Of a stretch of DNA of 64,000 nt, positions 1-55,940 are shown one piece after another. The notes beneath the pieces were generated by a model, which worked only from the letters and a program-made list of their open reading frames with translations, had not been told where the DNA came from and made no database searches. The DNA is from an uncultured delta proteobacterium (GTDB taxonomy: Bacteria; Desulfobacterota; Binatia; UBA9968): assembly GCA_963804165.1 (NCBI GenBank), contig CAWDPO010000046.1:256001-320000 (forward strand). The letters are read 5' to 3'. Position numbers and translations under genes: made by a program. The first letter of the stretch is position 1, and the number at the start of each line of letters is the position of its first letter.

Positions 1-4371
<4,371 letters not shown>

Positions 4372-4527: not shown

Positions 4528-6012
4528 ATGGGTAAACCGACTGGCTTTATGGAATATGAGCGCGAGCTACCCGAAGATCGCTCGCCGCTGGAACGGGTAA
4601 AGGACTGGAACGAGTTCCATGAACATTTCTCGGAAGAAAAGTTGCGCCATCAGGGCGCGCGCTGCATGGATTGCGGTATTCCGTTTTGCCATACCGGCCA
4701 ATTGATCAGCGGCATGGCTTCCGGTTGTCCAGTTAATAATTTAATTCCCGAGTGGAACGATCTCGTCTATCGCGGTCTTTGGCAAGAAGCGCTCAAGCGC
4801 TTACATAAGACGAACAACTTTCCGGAGTTCACTGGCCGCGTGTGTCCGGCGCCTTGTGAAGGCTCTTGCGTGCTCGGGCTAAACGAGCTGCCGGTCACGA
4901 TCAAAAACCTCGAGTGCGCGATTATCGATAACGGTTTCGCGCAAGGGTGGGTGAATCCCGACCCGCCCGAAAAGCGCACCGGGAAAAAAGTTGCCGTTAT
5001 CGGTTCGGGCCCGGCCGGTCTGGCGTGCGCGGACCAGCTCAATCGCGCGGGCCACATGATTACTGTCTACGAACGCGCCGACCGGATCGGTGGCCTGCTC
5101 ACGTACGGCATTCCCAACATGAAGCTCGACAAGACGATCGTGCAACGGCGTGTTGATTTAATGGCCGCGGAGGGCGTGGAGTTCATAACCAACGCTCATA
5201 TCGGAGTAGATCTGCCGGCGGCGAAATTGAAAAATGATTTCGATGCGGTGGTCATTTGCACCGGCGCCACCAAGGCGCGGGATTTACCGATTCCCGGGCG
5301 CGAGCTCAAGGGAATTCATATGGCCATGGAATTTCTTCTAGCCAACACGAAGAGCTTGCTCGACTCACAACGCCAGGATGGCAAATTCATCTCGGCCAAA
5401 GACAAGCATGTGATCGTGGTCGGTGGTGGAGATACTGGAACCGACTGTGTCGGCACGGCGATGCGGCACGGCTGTAAAAGCTTGACCCAATTGGAAATCT
5501 TACCGCGCCCTCCAGATACGCGCCAGCCCGACAATCCGTGGCCGGAATGGCCGAAAGTTTACAAGCTCGATTACGGCCAAGAAGAGGCCGCCGCCCGGTT
5601 TGGCGCGGACCCCCGCGTCTATCTGACCACGGGTGAAAAGTTCGTTGGCGACGACGCTGGCAACGTCAAAGAACTGCATATCTACGACGTCGAGTGGACG
5701 CGGAACGAACAGGGCGCATTTGTCCCAAGGCGAGTTCCAGCTTCCGAAAGAGTTTTGGCAGCGGAATTGGTTTTACTTGCGATGGGCTTCCTGGGACCGG
5801 AAGATACAGTGCTAACGCAGCTCCGCGTGGATCGCGATCCTCGGTCCAACGCCAGAGCCGAATACGGTCAGTTTGCCACGAACGTGCCGGGAATTTTTGC
5901 GGCGGGCGACTGCCGCCGCGGTCAGAGTCTGGTTGTTTGGGCGATCAACGAAGGGCGCGGCGCCGCGCGTGAGTGCGATCGCTTCCTCATGGGCGGAACG
6001 AATTTGCCGTAA
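4528..6012 (+). CDS. gltD: Glutamate synthase small subunit
   Basis: [10 protein letters not shown] start, CMDCGIPFC Fe-S motif, GSGPAG and GGGDTG dinucleotide-binding motifs; follows gltB. Confidence 0.97.
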
Positions 6013-6186
6013 GTACCCGCATGGTCAACTTGACAAAGGACGTGCCGACGACCGCAGCTTCGCGCAAGTTCGAGGCGGCATGACCAGATCTTGGTCGTCG
6101 ATGATATAGCCACATTTCTCGAAATTCTCTAACGTTCTTAAAACTCCTCGACGGTATTATTAAGTTGCCCTTTACCAATGGCACCT

Positions 6187-6232
6187 GTCGGGAACGCGAC
6201 TTTCCCGACTTGACACTGTGTCAGTGATGTCA
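6187..6232. promoter_or_regulatory. Hairpin plus palindromic TGACAC-T-GTGTCA site; candidate enhancer (UAS) for a sigma-54 activator
   Basis: GTCGGGAA/TTCCCGAC inverted repeat 6187-6209; perfect palindrome 6211-6223 about 75-85 bp upstream of the sigma-54 motif. Confidence 0.4.
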
Positions 6233-6296
6233 AAATCGAGGCCAATAGGGTGTCCAATTACACCGATTTACGGTCGTAACTAGTCTATTTTGGGCA

Positions 6297-6312
6297 TGGC
6301 ACTGGCGTTGCT
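6297..6312 (+). promoter_or_regulatory. Sigma-54 (-24/-12) promoter
   Basis: TGGCAC-TGGCG-TTGCT matches TGGCAC-N5-TTGCW with exact GG-N10-GC spacing. Confidence 0.75.
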
Positions 6313-6366
6313 TTAGGTAGCATGCGGAGGAATTAATTCTAGACGCGATATCGCGATAAAAATTAA

Positions 6367-6478
6367 CTCGCCTGAAAAAGCCGAACTCTCCGGGAAGGGA
6401 GGGCGGAAAGCCCCGGGTCCAGCGGCTGTCGGCGCTAGCGCTAAGCCGAGTCCGACTGCCGAGCCGGCCGAAAGCGAT
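6367..6478 (+). ncRNA. c-di-GMP-I (GEMM-I) riboswitch
   Basis: P1 TCGC(6368-71)/GCGA(6474-77); P2 CTCTC/GGGAG around a GGGA (GNRA) loop; core GGCGGAAAGCC..GGGTC and GACTGCCGAG..GCCGAAA resembles deltaproteobacterial GEMM-I; lies in the 5' UTR of 6514. Confidence 0.8.
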
Positions 6479-6513
6479 GAGACTGAGGAAAACAGAACAC
6501 TCGGAGTTGCACT

Positions 6514-7197
6514 ATGAAACAAAATACCGCTCAGGTCGCGGAATCAATGGTTACCGTGGATCGTGATCAACTAGACAAAGTAAACGGCTCAGCCGCCGCC
6601 GATGTTCGGGGTTTCGCGAAACAGCTACGCGCTTTGGGACAGGCGCTGGAGAAATTCAAATTCTCCGCCTTCGATCTCCAGTTGCAAAGCGGCATATACG
6701 TTGTTACCGGAAGAGCCGCAACGGCGGAGCAGATAAAGTTTTCGTTTTCCCGATTCATGCGCGAATTGTTCGAGGGCGTGATGCCACGGACCACACATAC
6801 GTACACCCAAGACCAGATGGACTTACGCTTTTCACTCGAGGAGATCGAGCGGTTCGACGTGCGCGGCCGGGTAAAGCGCCAGGACTCAAACAAGATGCCC
6901 GACCCTTATAGTATCTCGCAAATCTTGCGTGGTGCGGGTGCTTATCTGGACAATCGCGAGGTCGCGAACCTCTCTGCAATTTCGTTGCGCGGCAAATGGG
7001 TGACAGTGGCGTATGAGAGCCCCGAAGGCCGATTGGAGCAAGCCAAACAAGATTTAGAATACTTTTACGACTACTGGGTAAGGATGTATATGCGCCGCAG
7101 CAATCGCGTAAAGGTACCGGCGCCCAGCGAACCGACGCTTTTCGTGACGTGGGAAGGAATCCAAAAAGCCCACAGGCTCACGAACGTTCCTGGATGA
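6514..7197 (+). CDS. Hypothetical protein, two-repeat family (paralog of 27530-28036)
   Basis: 227-aa ORF with GGAG RBS; internal repeat LRALGQALE / LRGAGAYLD. Confidence 0.85.
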   Translation: MKQNTAQVAESMVTVDRDQLDKVNGSAAADVRGFAKQLRALGQALEKFKFSAFDLQLQSGIYVVTGRAATAEQIKFSFSRFMRELFEGVMPRTTHTYTQDQMDLRFSLEEIERFDVRGRVKRQDSNKMPDPYSISQILRGAGAYLDNREVANLSAISLRGKWVTVAYESPEGRLEQAKQDLEYFYDYWVRMYMRRSNRVKVPAPSEPTLFVTWEGIQKAHRLTNVPG

Positions 7198-7537
7198 TTT
7201 CAAATATATTGCGTCCTATCATGGGCGAATCGGTATCCCCGGCCTCCATAGAATCACCCTGGGTGTTTCTTAGCTTCACGTTGCGCGCCATTATCATCCG
7301 GCGGCATGAGCCGCGATGACTTGATATCGCCTTTATCTCGATCGAAGCGCTCTTCAGTTGACAATTTAGAAGATCGGTTGTTATGTTTCGCAAGGCTTGG
7401 GAGCATGCGATCGATGCATTGTAAGTTGGCCGCGCGCAGGTTCTGCCAGGTGATTGCTCGCGCGCTCGGTAATTGGGAATAGGTTTTAGCTCGCGCTGTC
7501 GTCCCACGTCTGTACATTCAAAAGTAGAAGGATTGTG

Positions 7538-8389
7538 ATGGCTCAATATTCGATGAAATGGCCGAATAATGCTCGCGTTGCGTTTGTGCTCGGCATCGCG
7601 TTGGAAGCATGGGATCGGACGAAGCCGACACAGGGAGCCGCCCTGCAGTCGCCGCTGCCCAAAGACGCGCTTTACAAATGGGACTGGTCCACGGAAACTT
7701 TCCGAGACTTCGGCCCGAAGATCGGCATGAAGCGACTCCTCGATATCTGCGACCAATACAAGCTCAAAGTCAGTATTCCGTTAAACGGCCTGACGTGCGT
7801 CTACTATCCCGACCTGGTGAAAGATTGTTACGAACGCGGGCACGAGCTGGTCGCGCACGGTTGGGAAATGGGCGAACGCCTTTATATGTTAACGCGCGAA
7901 CAGGAGCGCGACAATATTCTAAAAACTATCGATGCGATTGTAAGAGTCACGGGCGAACGTCCCACCGGTTGGTCATCGCCCGGTGTGCGTCCGAGCGACA
8001 ATACGGTCGAGCTCCTGGTGGAAACCGGGTTGGAGTACCACTGCGATTTTCACGACGATGAGATGCCCTATCCGATCTGGGCGGGCGATAAGCTTCTAGT
8101 CGAGTTTCCGCACCAATACACGATCAACGATCATCGAACTCAGGAAGAGGGTACGCGCCACGAATTCTTTGAGAAATTCAAAGACGAGTTTGATTACCGT
8201 TACAAAATCGGCGATGCGAACCCGACGATGATGAACGTAATCACCCATGCTTACCTGAGCTCGCGCATTCCCTTGATCGATACATTCGAGCAGATCGTCG
8301 CTTATGCGACGAGTCATAAGGACGTATGGCTGGCCCGTCGCGGCGATGTAGCGGCATGGGCGCGTAAGCAGTTCTTGGCGAACCGATAA
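7538..8389 (+). CDS. Polysaccharide deacetylase / PuuE-like hydrolase
   Basis: WPNNARVA start, GHELVAHG and PTGWSSPG motifs. Confidence 0.85.
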   Translation: MAQYSMKWPNNARVAFVLGIALEAWDRTKPTQGAALQSPLPKDALYKWDWSTETFRDFGPKIGMKRLLDICDQYKLKVSIPLNGLTCVYYPDLVKDCYERGHELVAHGWEMGERLYMLTREQERDNILKTIDAIVRVTGERPTGWSSPGVRPSDNTVELLVETGLEYHCDFHDDEMPYPIWAGDKLLVEFPHQYTINDHRTQEEGTRHEFFEKFKDEFDYRYKIGDANPTMMNVITHAYLSSRIPLIDTFEQIVAYATSHKDVWLARRGDVAAWARKQFLANR

Positions 8390-8425: not shown

Positions 8426-9397
8426 CTACTTGATCCAGAGATTGTTCAGATCGCCGATATTCGGCAGCAGGCCCAATGAAATTCCCGACTGCAAAATTTT
8501 GTTTTGTGACTGGAAGAAGCCCTCGCCCCACTTATCGGCAAAGTTGGCTTTGTTCTGCTTCAGCCCTGCGGCGATCTCTTCCGGCGTGCTCAAATTGAAA
8601 AGTTCCTTGGCTTTCACCTTGAAGAAGTCCTCGTCTTGACCCAATTTAATCACTTGGACCGCATCGATATAAGCGCTGCGTATGGCCTTGACCAGCACCG
8701 GCTGTTTTTCTACGGTCTCCCTGAGCATACCTACTGTCGATTTGAGTGGCGGCGCGCCAAAGATATTCTCGAGCTCGATGTCGAAATCGGCGAGCACGCG
8801 ATACTTGCCGGACATCACCAATCTCGTCGTGTGCGGCTCGAACATGTTGATCGCCTCCACTTCGCCGCGTTCTAAAAGCGCGATCAGGGCGCCGGTTTCA
8901 GCGGGCACGTTTTGAAAATCTTTCTCGATGTCGAGCTTCTGCTCCTTTGCTATTACGGCGGAAAAAAAATAGGCGCCGGTGACACGTGCGAAGTTGCCGA
9001 TCTTTTTGCCCTTGAGGTCGCCGAAAGATTTGTACGGCGCGTCCTTACGCACTACCCAGGAGTTGCCGGACCATATTTGCGGCGTGATCAAACGAATATC
9101 CGTGCCGCTCTTGACCAGATTGACCGCGGTGCTCGGTTGCATGGCGCTCGCCACGGTGCGGCCGAGCTTTACCGCATTCGCCGCTTCGGTGAAGTCCATC
9201 ATCATGTTATTGATCTTAATGCCGTATTTGGTGTCGAGCTTTTTGCTTTCAATCAGGGCGGCGATGTAACCCGACTGGCCGGCGGCGCTGGTGGCGATAT
9301 TCACTGTCGGCAGCGCCTGGCCGGCAAGCGCCGGCGCGCCGAGACCTGATGCCAACAAACAAAAAAGCATGGCCGAATAATCCCGTCTCGTCATCAT
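8426..9397 (-). CDS. NitT/TauT-family ABC transporter substrate-binding protein
   Basis: Signal peptide, DLKGKKIG motif, operon with ATPase and permease. Confidence 0.88.
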   Translation of the reverse strand: MMTRRDYSAMLFCLLASGLGAPALAGQALPTVNIATSAAGQSGYIAALIESKKLDTKYGIKINNMMMDFTEAANAVKLGRTVASAMQPSTAVNLVKSGTDIRLITPQIWSGNSWVVRKDAPYKSFGDLKGKKIGNFARVTGAYFFSAVIAKEQKLDIEKDFQNVPAETGALIALLERGEVEAINMFEPHTTRLVMSGKYRVLADFDIELENIFGAPPLKSTVGMLRETVEKQPVLVKAIRSAYIDAVQVIKLGQDEDFFKVKAKELFNLSTPEEIAAGLKQNKANFADKWGEGFFQSQNKILQSGISLGLLPNIGDLNNLWIK

Positions 9398-10155
9398 AAT
9401 TCGTCATCCTCCTTCAGACTCACTTTGGTTTCCAGCTCGGCAGCAAAATTATAAATCTCCGGGCACCAGCGACGCGGAGAAGGCAGCGGATTGGTCACGT
9501 AGGCATCGAGACGCGCCGGTCGGTTGGTCAGCGTGACAACGTAATCGCTCATATAGGCCGCTTCGGCGAGATTGTGCGTGACGAAAAGAACCGTGCGGTG
9601 CAATTGCTCACAGAGGCGCCGCGTCGTCTGGCGAAGTTTGCGCGCCGTAAGCTCATCGACGCTGGCGAAGGGTTCGTCCATGAGGACGATGTCGGACTCG
9701 ATTGCCAATGCGCGGGCTAAGCCGACGCGTTGGCGTTGGCCGCCGGAAAGATAGAGCGGAAATTGGTTGACGTATTCTTCGAGTCCGACAAGCCGCAGAT
9801 AGTGAGCGACACGCGACTCCCACTCGCTGTGAGCAACGCCGGCGGCTTTCAAGACGAGGCAAATGTTTTCGCCGATCGTTTTCCACGGCAGCAGGCGCGG
9901 GCTTTGAAACACGTAGCCAATGAGCGGCCGTGGTTGACTCCTGCCTGCGGTGAGAAATAGGAGATCGCCGCTGTCGAGTTTTTCCAGTCCGACGATGGAA
10001 TTGAGCAGGGTCGATTTGCCGCAGCCGGATGGCCCGATCAGAACCGTCACGCAGCCCTCGTGCGCTTCGAAGGACAGCCGGTCAATGACTTTCAGCGGCT
10101 GACCATCCTCGCGGCGAAACCACTTCTCCGCGTCCTGAACCAAAAGCTCGGCCAC
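9394..10155 (-). CDS. NitT/TauT-family ABC transporter ATP-binding protein
   Basis: GPSGCGKST, LSGGQ, LMDEPF, VTH motifs. Confidence 0.93.
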   Translation of the reverse strand: MAELLVQDAEKWFRREDGQPLKVIDRLSFEAHEGCVTVLIGPSGCGKSTLLNSIVGLEKLDSGDLLFLTAGRSQPRPLIGYVFQSPRLLPWKTIGENICLVLKAAGVAHSEWESRVAHYLRLVGLEEYVNQFPLYLSGGQRQRVGLARALAIESDIVLMDEPFASVDELTARKLRQTTRRLCEQLHRTVLFVTHNLAEAAYMSDYVVTLTNRPARLDAYVTNPLPSPRRWCPEIYNFAAELETKVSLKEDDEL

Positions 10156-11019
10156 CTAACGTCTCCAAACGTCGATTTTCGGGCGCCAAGCCGTGAGGCG
10201 TCGCTCGGCGAAGTTGATGATGCCGTATTCGATCACGATCATCGCGACCACGAACGTGAGCGTCCAGGCGATGACCCCTTCCATGTTGAAGACTTGATAG
10301 GATTTCATCACTTGATAGCCGACGCCGTTGCTGGTGCCGAACATTTCCACGACCACGACGACTTTCCAGGCAAGTCCTAAGCCATAGCGCGTCGCGGCAA
10401 AAATATTCGGCACTAGTTGCGGCAGGATGACCTGAGAGATCTTCATCCACTTGGTAAAATGAAAGACGTGGCTCATATCCATGAGCTCTTTATCGAGGGA
10501 TTTTACTCCCGCCCAGATGTTGATGACCAGCATGGGAAAAATCGTGACCGTCACGGCGAAGTAGGGAGAAAACTCATTGATGCCGAAGAGCATGACGGCG
10601 ATCAGCGCCCACATCAAACCGGGGATGGTTAGCCCGAGCACGACCAAGGGCTGAAAGAAACGTTCACCCATGACGACCGTACCCATATAAATGCCGACGC
10701 CGACGCTGAAGAACATCGCGATCACCGCACCGACGAATACCCGCCGCAAGCTTTGATACATATGGAAAAAGAACGTGCCGTCCGAAACCAACCGGGTCGC
10801 TTCCCGAACCGTGCTCAGCGGACTGGGCAACAGGCGCGGATAGATCGCCCAGAGTGCCCACCAGACGAGGACCACGCTTGATACGGCCAGCAGCGGCGGC
10901 AAAAGGCGTGCAGTCAAAGCGTGCGCCGAAGAGCTGGCGAAGGGCGGCACCGTTTCTGCGCCGGCGACGCCCGCACTTTGCCCCGCCATGGTTGCTTGGT
11001 TGTTTTGCTCGAAGGCCAT
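10156..11019 (-). CDS. NitT/TauT-family ABC transporter permease
   Basis: Multiple TM helices, LPSP motif, AWKVVVVVE helix. Confidence 0.9.
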   Translation of the reverse strand: MAFEQNNQATMAGQSAGVAGAETVPPFASSSAHALTARLLPPLLAVSSVVLVWWALWAIYPRLLPSPLSTVREATRLVSDGTFFFHMYQSLRRVFVGAVIAMFFSVGVGIYMGTVVMGERFFQPLVVLGLTIPGLMWALIAVMLFGINEFSPYFAVTVTIFPMLVINIWAGVKSLDKELMDMSHVFHFTKWMKISQVILPQLVPNIFAATRYGLGLAWKVVVVVEMFGTSNGVGYQVMKSYQVFNMEGVIAWTLTFVVAMIVIEYGIINFAERRLTAWRPKIDVWRR

Positions 11020-12932: not shown

Positions 12933-13889
12933 CTAACGCGGCGATGGCAACATGGAGAAATCCACCAGTTTTTCGGCGTCGAGAGTTTCCGGCACCGGCC
13001 GTTCTTCGCGAAGCAAATTTAAATAGCCGCGCACTTTCTTTATATCGATACCACCGTCGGGCGAAAGGATGCTGACGATGGTCTCGTAAGAGCGTTCCGC
13101 CTCGCTTTGGCTGATTTTGTATCGCGCCGCAATCATTCTGACCGCTTCGGCGCGGTTGGCGCGCTGCCAGGCGACGGCCGCCATCACCGCCGCTATTGTG
13201 TTTCTGATTCGGTCGCGGTGGTCACGAATCTCAGTCTGGGAGGTGAACAGTCCGACGTAGGGAATGTCGGCGAGGTCGCCGAGAAAGAGAAATTTCTTAT
13301 AGCCCGATGACACTGCCTTTTCGTCGAACGGCGGACTCAAGACCGCGCCGGACACCTGATTCGTCGCGAGCGTCGCAAAGCTGTTCGAAGTTCCTCCGGT
13401 GGTGACAAGACTCACTTGTTTCTCGTCCAATCCGAGTTTTTTGAATCCCGCGCGCGCGAAATAATAGGGCGACGATCGGATGTCCGAGATAGCAATCTTT
13501 TTGCCGACGAGATCGTGGGCTTTGGAAATGTCCTTGGTCGTGACCAAGACCCACGGCGTATCGCGATAGAGCGACAGTACGACCACGAGCGGCAAACCGG
13601 CCACCGCGGCGTTGATCGCGGCTTGCGGCGAAGTGAAGAAGTTAATATTACCGTTGAGGATCGCTTGCGGGCCGATGGCGCTGCGCATCTGAATGTATTC
13701 GACGTCCAACCCCGCTTTTGCGTAAAAGCCTTTTTCTTTTGCAATGTCGAAGGGCAAGGTGGAAACGGCGGACGATGGATAGCCGATGCGGACTTTCTGC
13801 GGAGCGTCTGCTGGCCATGAAGATCGAGGCAATAGCATTCCTGCGAAAAAAAGCCAAAGCGCCACCAAGGAGTTTCTAGCCATCAACAA
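12933..13889 (-). CDS. ABC transporter substrate-binding protein (NMT1/SsuA-like)
   Basis: Signal peptide, KVRIGYP, GLDVE and DLVGKKIA motifs. Confidence 0.88.
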   Translation of the reverse strand: MLMARNSLVALWLFFAGMLLPRSSWPADAPQKVRIGYPSSAVSTLPFDIAKEKGFYAKAGLDVEYIQMRSAIGPQAILNGNINFFTSPQAAINAAVAGLPLVVVLSLYRDTPWVLVTTKDISKAHDLVGKKIAISDIRSSPYYFARAGFKKLGLDEKQVSLVTTGGTSNSFATLATNQVSGAVLSPPFDEKAVSSGYKKFLFLGDLADIPYVGLFTSQTEIRDHRDRIRNTIAAVMAAVAWQRANRAEAVRMIAARYKISQSEAERSYETIVSILSPDGGIDIKKVRGYLNLLREERPVPETLDAEKLVDFSMLPSPR

Positions 13890-28217: not shown

Positions 28218-29251
28218 TTACATCCCAGACGTTTTGTCTCGAACCAGGCGCTGAACGTAACATAGACTGTCTCTTGAGTCGAAAACATTCTGGCCGCAAG
28301 TGACTGTTCCCTGGAGCTTACCTGGGCCCGGGAATGCGTCGTCGGTGTTATTGCCTTTGTCGGGACAAAAGCTGCGCCCAATCTGTGATGTTCTGGCACT
28401 GGGTTAAGTTGCCGCCATTTTTTATCACCGGAATCAAGTAGCAACGATTACGGGTCGGCTTTGAACATCGGCTTGAGGTGGCCATTAACGATCGTTTCAT
28501 TCACACCGTTTGCGACATTTCCACAATAGCCAACATCGATTGCGGGCTGGCCCGCGCAATAAGGCAGCTTTTCGAACAGGGCGCGAACCTCATCGCGTGC
28601 TGGCGTTGTCTATTTGATAAGTTTCCCAGCCGCCGGTGCTATTGCCTCCCGACTGGAAATCCAAAATTACAGTCACGATTCGGGCCTTTGCAGAGACCTT
28701 CCACGACTACGATCGGCAGTCCGGGAAGCGCCTGGTTCACAGCAACGGCGCTGACGCTCACATCGGCTGTCGTTCTAGCTGGCTTGCCCAAACAAATTGA
28801 GCAGTGGCGTCAAGAACAGCGGGGATTTCATGGCTTTCGCAGCGCTTCCGCCGTAGGGGTTGGTATTTTCTAATGCCACTCGAGCTCCGTTCGCATTGTT
28901 GATGTTGACTCCTGACGTGGTAAATTCGCCGGTCCCGTTGTCATATTTCACGAGGGTCACGTTCTTTTGATCGATTTGATTGTTAGGACTGTCGAGATAA
29001 TTGTTTCCGGTGCCGGGATTTGTTCCGCCGGGGTTAAACTTTGCCGCTCGGTCTGTAACTGTCGACCAGTTTCCACTCGGGATTGCCGATGCGGCAGCCA
29101 GCGCCGCCGCATCCACGGCCGGCTGACCCTGAGATCGCACATAGGCCAGATGTCCTGTGTCTAATCCCATGCCGACCATGATCAAGAGCAAAACAATCAT
29201 CAGAGTCATGAAGACGAGCGCATAGCCTTGTTGATTTTTTAACGGCTGCAT
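28218..29251 (-). CDS. tadG: TadG-like Flp pilus minor pilin (at least five apparent +1 frameshifts)
   Basis: QQG-YALVFM prepilin-like N-terminus, GLDTGH, Q.AVDAAALAAA; reconstructed C-terminus ...SVSAVA...GGW...YLIPVI...RLVRDKTSGM* ends at 28218. Confidence 0.75.
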
Positions 29252-29267
29252 ATAAGCCTCCATTGAC

Positions 29268-29786
29268 CTAAGCGGAATAGGGTCCGTAACTGGTCGGAGT
29301 CGTGCAATAATTATTATTTATGTAGGGCTGATATTTGTAGTGCATTTGCGTTCCCCGAGAGATCGTCAGAGTGTTTGGAGCGCTACCGCCAAACAATCGT
29401 ATTAACTGATACATGAAAAATTTGTATTGACCCTGTGCCTTCACTTCGACAAATTCCATACAGGCCGTTCCCGTGTAAAATGTCACCGTGACGGTCTTGT
29501 TTGTCAGGTAGGCTGGCAATCGGCTAATGACTTCTGTTTTCACCGTATCGGCTTCAGCCGAGCTAAAGATTAGGTTGGGAACGTTGCCGCTCTTTTGAAG
29601 TCCGCTGCCGATGCGCGCTCCCTCCCGAGCCGCGGTCTGAATCAGGTTACCCATAAAAAACGAAACACCGAAATCGACGGGTATATACAACGCAATCAGC
29701 AAGAGCGGAGTAATGAGCGAAATCTCGACGATTCCCTGACCTCTTTGATTATTGCGCATCGATCCATTTTCACTCACAGCGTTCAT
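29268..29786 (-). CDS. tadE: TadE-family pseudopilin
   Basis: RGQGIVEISL, DFG, AAREGARIG. Confidence 0.9.
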   Translation of the reverse strand: MNAVSENGSMRNNQRGQGIVEISLITPLLLIALYIPVDFGVSFFMGNLIQTAAREGARIGSGLQKSGNVPNLIFSSAEADTVKTEVISRLPAYLTNKTVTVTFYTGTACMEFVEVKAQGQYKFFMYQLIRLFGGSAPNTLTISRGTQMHYKYQPYINNNYCTTPTSYGPYSA

Positions 29787-29831
29787 TGGTTGGCCCTCCC
29801 TGTTTTCGCTCGTTCACTTCGAACTCACGCG

Positions 29832-30362
29832 TTAGCATCCCGCTTGCGCCTCCCACCTCATGCGTGTTTGACGCGTGATCGGCGTATCGTTTAAGTTTCC
29901 TGAGACGCCCACCCAATGGAGGAGCTGGTAGAAAAAGAAGTGGTAGGTTCCGGATACCGCGACTGTCACCATCCGGTTGCAATTTGTTCCTATATCAGGA
30001 TCTAGGTTCACCGTGATCGTCGCGGCTGGAAGGAGCGCCGCCGAAATCCTTCCTGCGGTTTCCTTAAATATGTTTCCTGTACAAGAAGGCACGACGCAGC
30101 TGGTCGTTCCGCTAACGAGCGTGCGATCGGCCGACGCGATTCTGGCTCCTTCACGCGCGGCGTTCTGAGCGAGCTGCCCCGTATAGAACGCAAGCCCAAA
30201 ATCTGCCGGTATCCAGGCGACAATCAGCAGGATTAGAAACGTCAGCGTGAACTCGACCACGGCTTGGCCTGACGAACCGGTTAAACCCATTAGACCCTTT
30301 CGACTTAGAAGCGGGGAAGATGAATCAAGTGACATCTTTCGAACTCCTTCTGCTTTCCGCAC
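29832..30362 (-). CDS. tadE: TadE-family pseudopilin (start uncertain)
   Basis: SGQAVVEFTL, DFG, AAREGARIAS. Confidence 0.9.
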   Translation of the reverse strand: MRKAEGVRKMSLDSSSPLLSRKGLMGLTGSSGQAVVEFTLTFLILLIVAWIPADFGLAFYTGQLAQNAAREGARIASADRTLVSGTTSCVVPSCTGNIFKETAGRISAALLPAATITVNLDPDIGTNCNRMVTVAVSGTYHFFFYQLLHWVGVSGNLNDTPITRQTRMRWEAQAGC

Positions 30363-52378: not shown

Positions 52379-53377
52379 TTATTTTACCGGGTATCGTTTC
52401 GCCATCTCGTTGAAGAAACCTTCTTTCTCAAGTTCCTGCAAAAAACTCAAGTCCACGAATTGCTCGGGTTTGAAGTTTTTGGCCTGTGGCAGGGTTGGCG
52501 TAAGGACGTCGAGCATGAACTGGATTCCTTTGAGCGTGGGGTAAGGCTTTTTAGGAATCGATTTGATGTAGCCGTTGTAAGAGTCTTCGAGCACCTCGGG
52601 ATTATTGGTGCGCATGTACTTGGCGAAGACCCGCTGGGTCTCCTTCTTGTTGGCATACACGAAATAGATCGCTTCGACGAAACCTTTGAGGGCATTTTTC
52701 ACCGTGTCGCGGTTGCTCGCGATATAGGCGCGCGAGGTGGCGAAGCCGTTGCCTTGCACTTCCACGCCAAGATCGCCGACCGAGACAATTTCCGTCAGGC
52801 CCGCTTTGCGCGCCAGCGGCGCGGCCGAAGTCGCGACGTAGGTGGCGTCGAGCACGCCGGTGGTGACGCTGGCGATACGCTCGGTGTCGAGGCCGGCCGG
52901 GATGAGCGTCAATTCCTTTATATCCGCATTAATGTGCCTGGCGACGATGATTGAGGCGTAGTGGGTCGCCGAATTGAAGCCGGTGATGCCAATGCGCTTG
53001 CCCTTGAGCTGTTCCAATTGGGTGATACCGGACCGGGTGAAAACAATTAGATCATACTTATTTTCCACCGCGGCAACGAGGACGACGTTATGGCCCTGAA
53101 TCGTAGCCTGGACGACGGTGCCGATATTGACGATGGGCGGATCGCCGCTCACCAGCGCCTGGGTTGCCACCTGCCCGCCGCGAAAAAGGATCGGTTCGAC
53201 TTCCAGCCCGTACTTGTTGAAGAGCCCCATCTCTTTGGCGACCCAAACATTGCTTTGCCGAAAGCTGAGGGACGGGTAACCGATCTTGATCTTTTTGAGC
53301 TGCTGGGTTTGAGTCGTGGGCGCTGCAGCCAAATGGCATGAAACTAGTATGACGAATAAGGCAGATACTCGTTTCAT
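52379..53377 (-). CDS. NitT/TauT-family binding protein (paralog of 53485-54486)
   Basis: Signal peptide, GYPSLSFRQSNVWVAKE, KPYPT. Confidence 0.9.
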   Translation of the reverse strand: MKRVSALFVILVSCHLAAAPTTQTQQLKKIKIGYPSLSFRQSNVWVAKEMGLFNKYGLEVEPILFRGGQVATQALVSGDPPIVNIGTVVQATIQGHNVVLVAAVENKYDLIVFTRSGITQLEQLKGKRIGITGFNSATHYASIIVARHINADIKELTLIPAGLDTERIASVTTGVLDATYVATSAAPLARKAGLTEIVSVGDLGVEVQGNGFATSRAYIASNRDTVKNALKGFVEAIYFVYANKKETQRVFAKYMRTNNPEVLEDSYNGYIKSIPKKPYPTLKGIQFMLDVLTPTLPQAKNFKPEQFVDLSFLQELEKEGFFNEMAKRYPVK

Positions 53378-53395
53378 GTGATCACCTCGATAAGA

Positions 53396-53471
53396 TTGGA
53401 GTGTTGGAGTAGTGGAGTGTTGGTTTTTTCCGTACCATTACTCCATCACTCCAATAACCCATCACTCCAAT
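53396..53471. repeat. 8-bp TGGAGT/ACTCCA inverted tandem repeat
   Basis: TGGAGTGT TGGAGTAG TGGAGTGT .. TACTCCA TCACTCCA .. TCACTCCA. Confidence 0.8.
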
Positions 53472-53484
53472 TCTTCACGCGTTC

Positions 53485-54486
53485 CTACTTCGTCGGATAC
53501 CGTTTCGCCATCTCGTTGAAAAAACCTTCCTTCTCAAGTTCCTGCAAAAAGCTCAAATCCACGAACTGCTCGGGCTTGGCGTTCTTTGCCTGTGGTAGCT
53601 GGGGCGCGACCATATCCAACATGAATTGAATGCCCTTGAGCGTTGGGTAAGGCTTCTTGGGAATCCACTTGATGTAGCCAGTGTAAGAGTCTTCAAGGAT
53701 CTCCTGATCGTTGGTGCGCATATATTTGGCGAAGACTTTCTGCGCTTCTTTCTTATTCGCGTAGACGAAATAAATCGCTTCGACAAAGCCTTTGAGCGCG
53801 TTTTTCACCGTGTCGCGGTTGCTGGCGATGTAGGAACGCGAGGTGGCAAAGCCATTGCCTTGCACCTCGACACCCAAGTCCGCGAGGTGGAGTAGCTCCG
53901 CAAAGCCAGCCTTTCGCGCGGGCGCGGAGGCGGAAGACGTGAAAAACGTCGCATCGATCCGGTTGGCGATCATGGCGCCGAAACGTTCGGCGTCAGGCCC
54001 CGCCGGTACAAGCGCGACGTCCTTATTGATTTCTAAATTGAGATGCTTGAATAGAATAGTCGCGGCGTTATGTGTCGCCGAGCCGAAGCCGCTGATGCCG
54101 AACTTTTTCCCTTTGAGCTCTTCGAGCTTATTGATGCCTTTGCGCGCGAACACGATCTGATCATAGGTGGTTTCCACGGCGGCCACCAACACGAGGTTGT
54201 AACCTTGCAAGCTGGCCTGGACCACGGTGCCGATGTTGACGATCGGCGGATCGCCGGCCACCAGAGCTTGCGTGGCCATTTGACCGCCGCGCAAGAAGAT
54301 CGGTTCCACTTCCAGACCGTACTTTTCGAACAACTTCATTTCCTTGGCCACCCAGACGTTGGACTGGCGAAAACTCAAGGAAGGGTAACCGATCCGAATT
54401 TTCTTTAATGCCTGGGCGTCTGCCGGGTCGGCGCCGACGCCTATTATTAGGGTTAATGCCATCAGGATGCCAAGAACAAATTTCAT
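53485..54486 (-). CDS. NitT/TauT-family binding protein
   Basis: Own signal peptide MKFVLGILMAL..ADA; highly similar to 52379-53377. Confidence 0.88.
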   Translation of the reverse strand: MKFVLGILMALTLIIGVGADPADAQALKKIRIGYPSLSFRQSNVWVAKEMKLFEKYGLEVEPIFLRGGQMATQALVAGDPPIVNIGTVVQASLQGYNLVLVAAVETTYDQIVFARKGINKLEELKGKKFGISGFGSATHNAATILFKHLNLEINKDVALVPAGPDAERFGAMIANRIDATFFTSSASAPARKAGFAELLHLADLGVEVQGNGFATSRSYIASNRDTVKNALKGFVEAIYFVYANKKEAQKVFAKYMRTNDQEILEDSYTGYIKWIPKKPYPTLKGIQFMLDMVAPQLPQAKNAKPEQFVDLSFLQELEKEGFFNEMAKRYPTK

Positions 54487-54530
54487 GCGTAAAAACCTTT
54501 CAGCTAATCTATTATTATTACTGCCGCAAT

Positions 54531-55530
54531 TTATTTTCGCCAACTGCTTGAGCGCCTCTTCGATGTACGCATTGTCGACAAAATCGCTCGCCGGTGGAAT
54601 CTTTTTCCCTTGATAAGTTCCCTCTTTGGCCCGGAGGTCCATGGCCTTGTCGAAGGAAACCTGGCTGACCATGCCGTCCCTCGGAAACGGCCGAAAGTCC
54701 TTGACCAAGTATTTGTAATCTTCCTCGGCGCTTTCCCGCGTCGTTTTTAGGGCTTTCATGTGGATCGCTATGGACTCTTCTCTGTTCTTCGGGTCATAGA
54801 GCCAGCGCGTCGCCTCGATCACCGATCTGAGGTAGCGCACCACTTCCTGGCGATTCGATTTGAGGTAGTTGGTATGGGCGAAGTCGGTGGTGAAAAGAAT
54901 CGGGCCCAAATATTCATGAAAATTGGCGAGCTTGCGAAACCCTTCCTTGGCGGCGCGGAACGTCGACGGCGGACCCATGAACGAAGCCTGCACCGAGCCG
55001 CGCTTGAGGGCGGCGTAGCGCTCCGACGAGGTGCCGACGATCAAAAGTTTGTAGTCGTTTTCCTTGAGCTTATAGGCTTTCTCCAGGATCTCGTGCACCA
55101 TCAAAGTCGTGCCGCCGGTCAGTGTGCTGACGCCGAGTGTCTTGCCTTTTAAATCCGCGCCGGTTTTGATCTCGGGGCGCGCGTAGATGTCGTATGGGAT
55201 CTTCTCCATGTTGGCGCTGATAATTTTTATCTTTCCGCCTTTCTCTGCGGCGCCGATCACATAGTCCGGATTGATCCGGCCGATGGGGATGGTCTCGCTC
55301 AGCACGGCGCGCAGAACGTTGGTGGCGCCGCGGATGATGATCACTTCGACCTGGATACCGTTTTTTTCGAAGAATTTTTTCTGTTCGGCGACATACAGCG
55401 GCCAGCTCGACGAAGTATTGCCGCTCTGCGTAAAGCGCAATTTCAACATGCCGCCGTCGGCCGCCAGAGCAGTGGCGGATGAACTTAGCGCGCCGATGAG
55501 TGCGATGATCGTTCCGATTAGTTGCTTCAC
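54531..55530 (-). CDS. NitT/TauT-family binding protein (appears fused to the next gene in the ORF track)
   Basis: Signal peptide from GTG 55530; DLKGKTLG; removing one A from GCGAAAATAA restores a TAA at 54531. Confidence 0.8.
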
Positions 55531-55546
55531 ACCTAACCCTATCTCT

Positions 55547-55940
55547 TTATTGGACTGCATTTGGCTGAAGCTGGCGGAGGCGTTCACTTCTCCTTCGATT
55601 TGCTTCTAGACGCAGTTTTTCAATTCCAAAAAAACGGATCGGAACGCGTCTCCATTCACGCGTCCATGGTCTCGTCAAACCACTTGTGCACGCCCATGAA
55701 GTAGCCGATGGCGATGCCGACAATGTACGCCGTGGTAAACCCGTAGAAAAATTCGGTATGCGTCGCGACGAAGTGTTTATTGAGCTGGCCGGAGACAAAC
55801 AGATTCCAAAACGATGCCAGCACACTACCGGGCGGTGGAATCAGAAGTTCGTTTTCCAACAACAGACGCGTCAAAATTTCCCAAATCACCAGGCCGGCGA
55901 ATATGGTAACGCAGCCGCGTACGATTTCCTTCCTGAGCAC
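55547..55940 (-). pseudogene. Truncated ABC permease N-terminus followed by a possible ATPase C-terminal remnant
   Basis: IWEI..LIPPP..GYFMG stops at 94 aa; downstream ETRSDPFF-LELKNCV*KQIEGEV resembles an ABC ATPase tail. Confidence 0.55.

Follow-up and report, generated by a model that had tools for sequence, protein, structure and literature searches.

A conserved sigma-54 type promoter and c-di-GMP-I type aptamer upstream of an uncharacterised protein family with possible links to pili

Introduction

The c-di-GMP-I (GEMM-I) aptamers, represented by Vc2 of V. cholerae (RF01051), form a three-helix junction with a GNRA-capped P2 helix, have a G, an A, and a C at the positions that contact cyclic dimeric guanosine monophosphate (c-di-GMP), and, in the Vc2 type, belong to the 5′ leader of a gene with a role in surface behaviour. 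Here, we describe an RNA that resembles them in these respects, encoded on the plus strand of a 64,000-nucleotide (nt) stretch of DNA (positions 256,001–320,000 of contig CAWDPO010000046.1; hereafter the window) from an uncultured bacterium of the Binatia. The RNA precedes an open reading frame (ORF) for a 227-amino-acid (aa) protein. We consider it probable that a sigma-54 promoter and this c-di-GMP-I aptamer jointly control a single gene, and that the gene belongs to the machinery by which the cell attaches or moves.

Unlike canonical GEMM-I RNAs, the window RNA has an A-rich junction (GAAAAAG) and a P3 helix with an extra hairpin (an insertion of ~30 nt relative to the RF03167 model), and a sigma-54 promoter lies in front of it. 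Next to position 20, the RNA has a C-G pair where we take Vc2 to have G-C. RF01051 is outscored by a variant model, c-di-GMP-I-GGC (RF03167, clan CL00126), which is matched over its full length and shares the A-rich junction and an internal loop in P1. The resemblance to this variant does not extend to the binding site: the consensus G at position 37 of RF03167, which we equate with A47 of Vc2 and which is presumably the residue that “GGC” refers to, is an A in all nine leaders compared here (those of the window and eight related loci), so that the binding site sets this RNA apart from the GGC type. The Geobacter GEMM-Ib riboswitches, which bind 3′,3′-cyclic GMP-AMP (3′,3′-cGAMP), share the fold, the clan, and an origin in the former Deltaproteobacteria, but have an A at the equivalent of G20 (PMC6140456, excerpted text), whereas the nine leaders have a G.

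Two further systems are similar with respect to control. In C. difficile, the c-di-GMP-II riboswitch Cdi-2-4 lets c-di-GMP turn on the pilus-related gene pilA1 through the leader RNA (PMC6366702, excerpted text). Two of our related loci (L011 and L012) share this arrangement, with a class-II aptamer, a terminator-like hairpin, and a pilin-like ORF in front of a homolog of the 227-aa protein, whereas the window has a class-I aptamer, no terminator, a sigma-54 promoter, and no pilin gene in the operon. As for the control of pilin genes by sigma-54 and PilR, a GG-N10-GC promoter and an upstream activator site before pilus-linked genes are common features (PMC7170775, excerpt). Unlike in PilR control, the window has TGTCA repeats in place of the TGT-N11-ACA site of P. 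aeruginosa PilR (PMC8035640, excerpt), and a riboswitch is added downstream. Our literature searches found no published c-di-GMP riboswitch stacked on a sigma-54 promoter, and nothing relevant for riboswitches in Binatia. We place the RNA in the c-di-GMP-I clan; its setting, with two layers of control, is unusual and conserved.

The sigma-54 type promoter

The genes gltB and gltD lie upstream of the 227-aa gene, and since gltD ends at position 6012, the control region occupies a spacer of ~500 nt before the ORF. The window was compared with 21 loci (L001–L021) that encode homologs of the protein, obtained by scanning one genome per species and derived mostly from metagenome-assembled genomes (MAGs) labelled Binatia or “Deltaproteobacteria”. 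Their proteins range from 85% down to 27% identity to the query. L010 is cut inside the gene, which leaves 20 loci with examinable upstream DNA. The nine leaders are those of the window and of L001, L003–L008, and L015.

The sequence TGGCACTGGCGTTGCT on the plus strand of the spacer (Table 1) is an exact TGGCAC-N5-TTGCT, and the sole match in the window to TGGCAC-N5-TTGCW with at most one mismatch. On the window alone, such a match is within chance, because shuffled windows contain 1.48 on average and at least one is present in 80 of 100 shuffles. When up to two mismatches to TGGCAC-N5-TTGCW are allowed, a GG-N10-GC motif is found 5′ of the homolog in 13 of the 20 examinable loci (L001–L009, L013–L015, and L019). 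Its distance to the start codon is 217 nt in the window and ~180–218 nt in the eight class-I loci, but only ~40–60 nt in L002, L013, and L014, which is too short to accommodate an aptamer. L011 and L012 share TGGCATCATATCTGCG, which is of the GG-N10-GC type with three mismatches and lies 13 nt before the class-II aptamer. A scan that took in the window and every locus on both strands, 365,640 positions in total, returned five exact and nine one-mismatch motifs, and four and seven of these, respectively, are located 5′ of family genes, i.e., 11 of the 14 best motifs. No sigma-70-like promoter was found on the plus strand between 6013 and 6513. The comparison argues strongly for a sigma-54 promoter at this site, and we regard the assignment as very probably correct.

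Two conserved blocks lie further upstream, at about −117 to −59 from the predicted start, which is the usual enhancer distance for sigma-54 promoters. Block A consists of TGTCA/TGACA repeats, and similar TGTCA(C) repeats precede the promoter in L002, L009, L013, and L014; the sigma-54 activator protein may bind here. Block B is a dyad, and a dyad of the GTGC-N6-GCAC type occurs in the same column range in L003, L005, L006, and L008, making it a second candidate protein-binding site. PilR was considered as the activator and rejected; a TGT-N11-ACA site of its type was not found in block A, and the activator is therefore left unnamed.

The aptamer and its conservation

The presence and conservation of promoter and aptamer, and the covariation, are results of the computation itself. 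In Rfam E-value mode, a search of 6150–6600 matched RF03167 at 6371–6473 on the plus strand with 39.1 bits (E = 8.1e-8 for 451 nt), covering the entire model (1–80 of 80), and two further matches from the same clan had lower scores. The core sequence GGCGGAAAGCC is found at 6402–6412. The same mode applied to all 21 loci gave RF03167 matches directly 5′ of the homolog in seven, with 66.4 bits in L007, 63.5 in L003, 59.9 in L004, 57.5 in L015, 56.5 in L005, 54.0 in L006, and 51.3 in L001, three of which reach the gathering score of 59. An eighth class-I copy, in L008, is truncated and has lost the 5′ strand of inner P3.

Most of what the first-pass annotation had read in this region can be retained. 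Its exact TGGCAC-N5-TTGCT motif is confirmed and recurs as described above, its GEMM-I-like aptamer at 6367–6478 is found at 6368–6477 when the outer P1 pairs are included, and the GNRA-capped P2, the core, and the extended P3 that it had noted correspond to the GGGA loop, GGCGGAAAGCC, and the ~30-nt insertion. Two of the checks that it had proposed can be answered here. The covariance-model search gives an RF03167 match in E-value mode, but nothing at gathering thresholds; and the leader is kept by homologs to the extent of a promoter in 13 of 20 loci, a class-I aptamer in eight, and a class-II aptamer in two, but ten of the 20 have no aptamer.

The nine leaders were aligned with MAFFT and given the structure of the Rfam alignment, to which four outer P1 pairs were added (24 pairs, 210 cells). 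Of the 210 pair cells, 91.4% hold standard pairs, compared with 37.7–55.2% in controls with slid partners. Five pairs are changed on both sides, against a mean of 1.3 after shuffling and none or one in the slid-partner controls, and none of 500 shuffles reached five. In this small sample of nine sequences, covariation is thus found for the P1/P2/P3 junction characteristic of clan CL00126. The stronger argument for the predicted aptamer is constraint. Between loci, the core is 83–97% identical, while fourfold synonymous sites of the gene are 31–73% identical; the distal P3 hairpin is only 23–80% identical. The P2 loops of the nine leaders are all GGGA, GCGA, or GAAA, no P3 receptor motif for them was identified, and the window loop is closed by a C/A mismatch. 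A covariance model built from the nine leaders (R1) and run over the window and the 21 loci (182,820 bases) matched its training sequences only, with no copy in L002, L009, L013, L014, or L016–L021. Judged on the window by itself, neither the promoter nor the aptamer is statistically secure; a signal above chance comes only from the comparison with related loci. Upstream of the aptamer, folding predicts a hairpin in the stretch corresponding to 6329–6355 in each of the nine leaders, despite differing sequence.

We are highly confident that a GEMM-I type aptamer is present at 6368–6477. In uncultured soil lineages like the Binatia, GEMM-I relatives that look functional are hence missed at Rfam default thresholds.

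The ligand

G6380 is the unpaired base before the two-pair helix of P2 and aligns to the unpaired position 10 of RF03167, A6407 is the first unpaired base after that helix, and C6468 is the unpaired base before the 3′ strand of P1. We take these bases to be the counterparts of Vc2 G20, A47, and C92, respectively, in line with the first-pass annotation, which had identified G6380 as the G20 equivalent. All three (G14, A41, and C102 in the window row of the alignment) are invariant in the nine leaders. Judged from the alignment, the leaders thus combine a variant scaffold, with its A-rich junction and P1 internal loop, with the canonical binding triplet. In Vc2, recognition of the two c-di-GMP guanines falls to G20 and C92, and it is an A at position 20 that leads to cGAMP binding in the Geobacter class (PMC6140456, excerpted text). 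A G rather than an A at this position in nine of nine leaders predicts c-di-GMP over cGAMP.

Independent of the class-I aptamer, operons of two homologs are preceded by a c-di-GMP-II riboswitch (RF01786), with 54.6 bits in L011 (gathering score 53.5) and 43.6 bits in L012. The proteins of these loci are 50% identical to the query. Two unrelated classes of c-di-GMP aptamer before one gene family make c-di-GMP the likely signal, and the occurrence of class-I or class-II riboswitches according to lineage is a strong case of guilt by association for the family as a c-di-GMP output. Taken together, c-di-GMP is quite likely the ligand of the window aptamer.

Switching

A terminator scan found none on the plus strand of the window leader; a simple terminator scan missed the hairpins of L011 and L012, which were revealed by folding. 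Since the leader has no terminator, control is most likely translational. A candidate expression platform in the window is a predicted hairpin around the Shine–Dalgarno (SD) sequence. Its outer stem (6474–6478 with 6506–6510) reuses GCGA (6474–6477) of outer P1, while the inner stem (6483–6487 with 6500–6504) is a weak helix of five pairs that persists in both states. A GGAG lies 5′ of the start codon in all nine leaders. When folding is unconstrained, seven of the nine have the first two G of the SD mostly paired. Forcing the aptamer helices increased SD accessibility in seven leaders, i.e., those of L001, L004, L005 (modestly), L006, L007, L008, and L015, and in most of the relatives the partner of the SD region is the 3′ strand of P3, CCGAG.

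The class-II loci suggest a comparable logic. In L011 (88–172) and L012 (2545–2624), the riboswitch is followed by a hairpin with a tract of seven to eight U, the Flp-pilin-like ORF, and the homolog. Folding places the 5′ arm of the terminator-like hairpin in the 3′ end of the class-II aptamer, a shared-arm design that is also that of the pilA1 ON switch in C. difficile (PMC6366702, in excerpt).

We propose the following sequence of events. An enhancer-binding activator would bind the TGTCA-repeat block ~90–115 nt upstream and turn on sigma-54 RNA polymerase at 6297–6312, with a start near 6323. The resulting leader of ~190 nt would fold into the three-helix c-di-GMP-I type aptamer at 6368–6477. 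Without ligand, the 3′ part of the aptamer would pair around the SD GGAG, using GCGA 6474–6477 in the window and the P3 3′ strand CCGAG in most relatives. With c-di-GMP bound, P1 and P3 would hold these strands and the ribosome site would open, such that synthesis of the protein would require both an active sigma-54 activator and high c-di-GMP. The folds slightly favour such an ON switch acting on translation.

The protein family and its neighbours

The 227-aa protein is a cytoplasmic member of a large and uncharacterised family. The search of length-matched proteins returned 283 homologs at E ≤ 1e-3; those listed are all ~220–230 aa long and “hypothetical” or nameless, and a Candidatus Binatia record is the source of one. 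When cluster representatives were searched exhaustively, 405 matched at E ≤ 1e-3, of which 183 reached 1e-10 and 30 reached 1e-30, with a common core at about residues 33–200; the family thus comprises at least 405 clusters at 50% identity. A search for fused or longer forms gave none at E ≤ 1e-3. The absence of a recognised domain, noted in the first-pass annotation, still stands: no Pfam or NCBIfam family matches at E ≤ 0.01 (noise only at E ≤ 1), PADLOC gives none, PHROGs a single match at E = 0.08, and ESM Atlas no usable match. Pfam likewise finds no family in ten longer or partly matched members, and a profile search with the distant-homolog alignment (A4) retrieved 21 proteins, all “hypothetical” and without Pfam matches.

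An AlphaFold model based on 111 diverse homologs has a predicted local distance difference test score (pLDDT) of 80.9, above 90 in the core, and a predicted template modelling score (pTM) of 0.73; it replaced a model from 40 close homologs with a pLDDT of 57.2. The predicted fold consists of alpha/beta elements with disordered ends. Foldseek against the PDB gives no significant neighbour (best E = 6e-3, template modelling score (TM) ≤ 0.30), matches in BFVD have TM ≤ 0.35, and a sequence-profile search of the PDB returned none. Low-scoring matches to PCNA, LAGLIDADG, and proteasome-type folds (TM ≤ 0.35) were not taken as related. R39, R122, R139, and R195 are nearly invariant across the 111 homologs. 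A conserved RRSNR stretch covers residues 194–198, and an N-terminal helix (34–46) contains LRALGQALE. The conserved arginines and RRSNR may indicate a phosphate or nucleotide ligand.

The sole lead to a function is the gene context, and eight of the 21 loci have a pilus-linked neighbourhood. In L018, L020, and L021, the homolog directly follows genes for type IVa pilus ATPases of the PilT/PilU family (446–507 bits, cutoff 319). In L009, L011, and L012, it directly follows an ORF of 62–74 aa with a hydrophobic helix and a G-Q-G-L-[VT]-E-Y motif, which we take to be the signature of Flp-type prepilins. In L016 and L017, a gene for a TPR protein with weak similarity to PilW lies upstream, and L017 also has a T2SSF gene nearby. 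The protein itself shows no sequence or fold likeness to a known pilus protein in Pfam, NCBIfam, PADLOC, PHROGs, or Foldseek. In the window, three adjacent minus-strand genes with TadE, TadE, and TadE/G-like domains (Flp pilus assembly) are found at 28775–30362, ~21 kb away, and a loose pilin-motif scan of the window gave no credible Flp-like ORF.

The first-pass annotation had combined dual control by sigma-54 and c-di-GMP with a motility or attachment effector. The former has gained comparative support from the orthologous promoters and the class-I and class-II aptamers, and the latter from the distant homologs beside pilus genes, which make a role in pilus function testable. We give a pilus-linked role of the protein even chances. 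More specifically, and tentatively, c-di-GMP could induce the family as a part or a regulator of type IV/Flp pili, with the PilT/PilU retraction ATPases as a possible target. Control by c-di-GMP would then have arisen twice, with unrelated riboswitch classes, and been stacked on a sigma-54 enhancer-dependent promoter, the two forming an AND gate between an activator signal and c-di-GMP.

Alternative explanations

Several observations weigh against the interpretation given above, beginning with the quality of the window aptamer. It falls under the gathering score of the clan CL00126 model, Rfam at gathering thresholds finds no match in the whole 64-kb window, and at 39.1 bits, compared with 51–66 in the relatives, it is the lowest-scoring full-length copy among the leaders and the most deviant. 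Four lineage-specific changes affect positions that are constant in the other full-length copies, two of them next to the binding pocket. The closest relative, L001, has two uncompensated P1 mismatches, and the copy in L008 is damaged. In L002, L013, and L014, the promoter is present without an aptamer, so aptamer loss does occur in the family. The covariation, drawn from nine related sequences and a structure derived from Rfam, is supportive but short of conclusive. The window aptamer might thus be a decaying relic that no longer binds ligand, with the gene under the sigma-54 promoter alone. This is, however, unlikely, since the core of the window copy is 84–94% identical to L003–L006 while fourfold sites are 36–47% identical, which argues for continued constraint, and the three ligand-contact positions and the helices are kept. 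The extra G at 6466–6467 may furthermore be an artefact, as gltB on the same contig runs in three frames and assembly indels are possible. If the aptamer is functional, another ligand has to be considered, e.g., 3′,3′-cGAMP or that of the GGC variant. The best Rfam model is this variant and not the canonical family, the scaffold follows its consensus, and single-base changes switch ligand in this fold (PMC6140456, excerpt). With G, A, and C at positions 20, 47, and 92 in nine of nine leaders, and the unrelated c-di-GMP-II class in homologous operons, we find a ligand other than c-di-GMP very unlikely.

The direction of switching is less firmly indicated. In the window, the first two G of the SD are not freed by the forced aptamer (0.03/0.08 vs 0.04/0.06), in L003 the second SD G becomes less accessible, the fold of the entire leader does not exceed shuffled sequences in stability (z = −0.66), and class-I switches in C. 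difficile are uniformly OFF according to excerpted text of PMC6366702. An OFF switch, or an action via mRNA stability or Rho termination rather than ribosome access, is possible although doubtful, given the gain in SD accessibility in seven of nine leaders, the competition between the outer sequestor stem and outer P1 for GCGA in the window, the antiterminator-like appearance of the class-II relatives, and the lack of a terminator in the window leader. Elements of the proposed control are also missing, as ten of the 20 examinable loci have no aptamer and none of 64 window ORFs scanned encodes a sigma-54 activator (Sigma54_activat). As for the role of the gene, the pilus link comes from distant homologs (27–56% identity), the Flp-like ORFs have no Pfam match at E ≤ 1, and the window gene lies behind gltD, as do its homologs in 11 of 21 loci (L001–L008 and L013–L015). 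Sigma-54 being the classical nitrogen sigma factor, the protein could serve nitrogen metabolism as a sigma-54-dependent gene kept beside glutamate synthase. The upstream dyads presumably lack the half-site arrangement of NtrC, and the gene has its own promoter and a ~500-nt spacer. The gltD linkage is confined to related Binatia-type genomes, where it may be mere synteny within one lineage, and elsewhere the homologs neighbour pilT/pilU, Flp-like ORFs, and genes resembling those for pilus assembly. In addition, c-di-GMP riboswitches typically precede motility or adhesion genes (PMC6366702, excerpt), and a nitrogen role appears improbable. Finally, the frequency of the promoter motif in shuffled windows could mean that it is a chance match and that the gene is transcribed by read-through from gltD or from an unrecognised promoter. 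We consider this highly improbable in view of its conservation at the same distance in orthologs, its concentration before family genes, and the conserved upstream blocks at enhancer distance.

Features and further observations

Table 1. Positions of the promoter, leader, aptamer, and gene features in the window
Feature	Position	Strand	Remarks
Block A, TGTCA/TGACA repeats	6206–6236	+	About −117 to −87 from the predicted start; aligns in nine leaders
Block B, dyad GGTGT-N6-ACACC	6249–6264	+	About −74 to −59; read from sequence
Sigma-54 type −24/−12 promoter, TGGCAC-TGGCG-TTGCT	6297–6312	+	Exact consensus; GG 6298–6299, GC 6310–6311
Two small 5′ leader hairpins	6329–6340, 6344–6355	+	Minimum-free-energy fold; between predicted start (~6323) and aptamer
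c-di-GMP-I (GEMM-I) type aptamer	6368–6477	+	RF03167 match plus outer P1 pairs
Aptamer P1	6368–6371 with 6474–6477; 6373–6374 with 6469–6470	+	
Aptamer P2	6381–6382 with 6405–6406; 6386–6391 with 6396–6401	+	Loop GGGA (GNRA) 6392–6395
Aptamer P3	6409–6419 with 6454–6465	+	Plus distal hairpin
Predicted ligand-contact equivalents	G6380, A6407, C6468	+	
Deviation 1	C6391/A6396		Mismatch closing the GGGA tetraloop
Deviation 2	C6413		Others have a bulged A
Deviation 3	A6409/C6465		Mismatch at the base of P3
Deviation 4	6466–6467		Extra G beside C6468, the C92 equivalent
Candidate expression platform, SD-sequestering hairpin	6474–6510	+	Minimum-free-energy and constrained folds; predicted
Shine–Dalgarno GGAG	6503–6506	+	7 nt 5′ of ATG; read from sequence
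227-aa protein, uncharacterised family	6514–7197	+	Conserved core at about residues 33–200

The gltB gene of the window (2–4371) is split over three frames (2–1426, 1125–2363, and 2344–4371), and still fits the GltB profile contiguously (83–451, 457–835, and 836–1469). The pattern implies two frameshifts, either in a pseudogene or from assembly indel errors. The coding region next to the best-scoring aptamer, in L007 (3001–3684), is also frame-broken, with seven stops in the starting frame, and long-read assembly errors or a pseudogene may account for this. L005 and L009 are two paralogs in one MAG, labelled Chloroflexota. The L005 paralog follows gltD and has a class-I aptamer; the L009 paralog follows the Flp-like ORF and has a sigma-54-like motif and TGACA/TGTCA repeats, without an aptamer.

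Downstream of the 227-aa gene, a minus-strand ORF at 7178–7756 shows no conservation with ORFs downstream of the homologs and is probably spurious. L003 (3889–4401), L013 (3737–4315), and L014 (3598–4143) have in common a convergent minus-strand gene at this side, which is absent from the window and encodes a Q/R/E-rich product with a hydrophobic N-terminus. A polysaccharide-deacetylase-like gene is often found downstream in the gltD-linked loci. Periplasmic binding proteins of the NMT1/SsuA type and an ABC transporter are encoded in the window at 8426–11019, 12933–13889, and 52379–55587, and the same binding-protein family recurs 3′ of the homolog in many loci.

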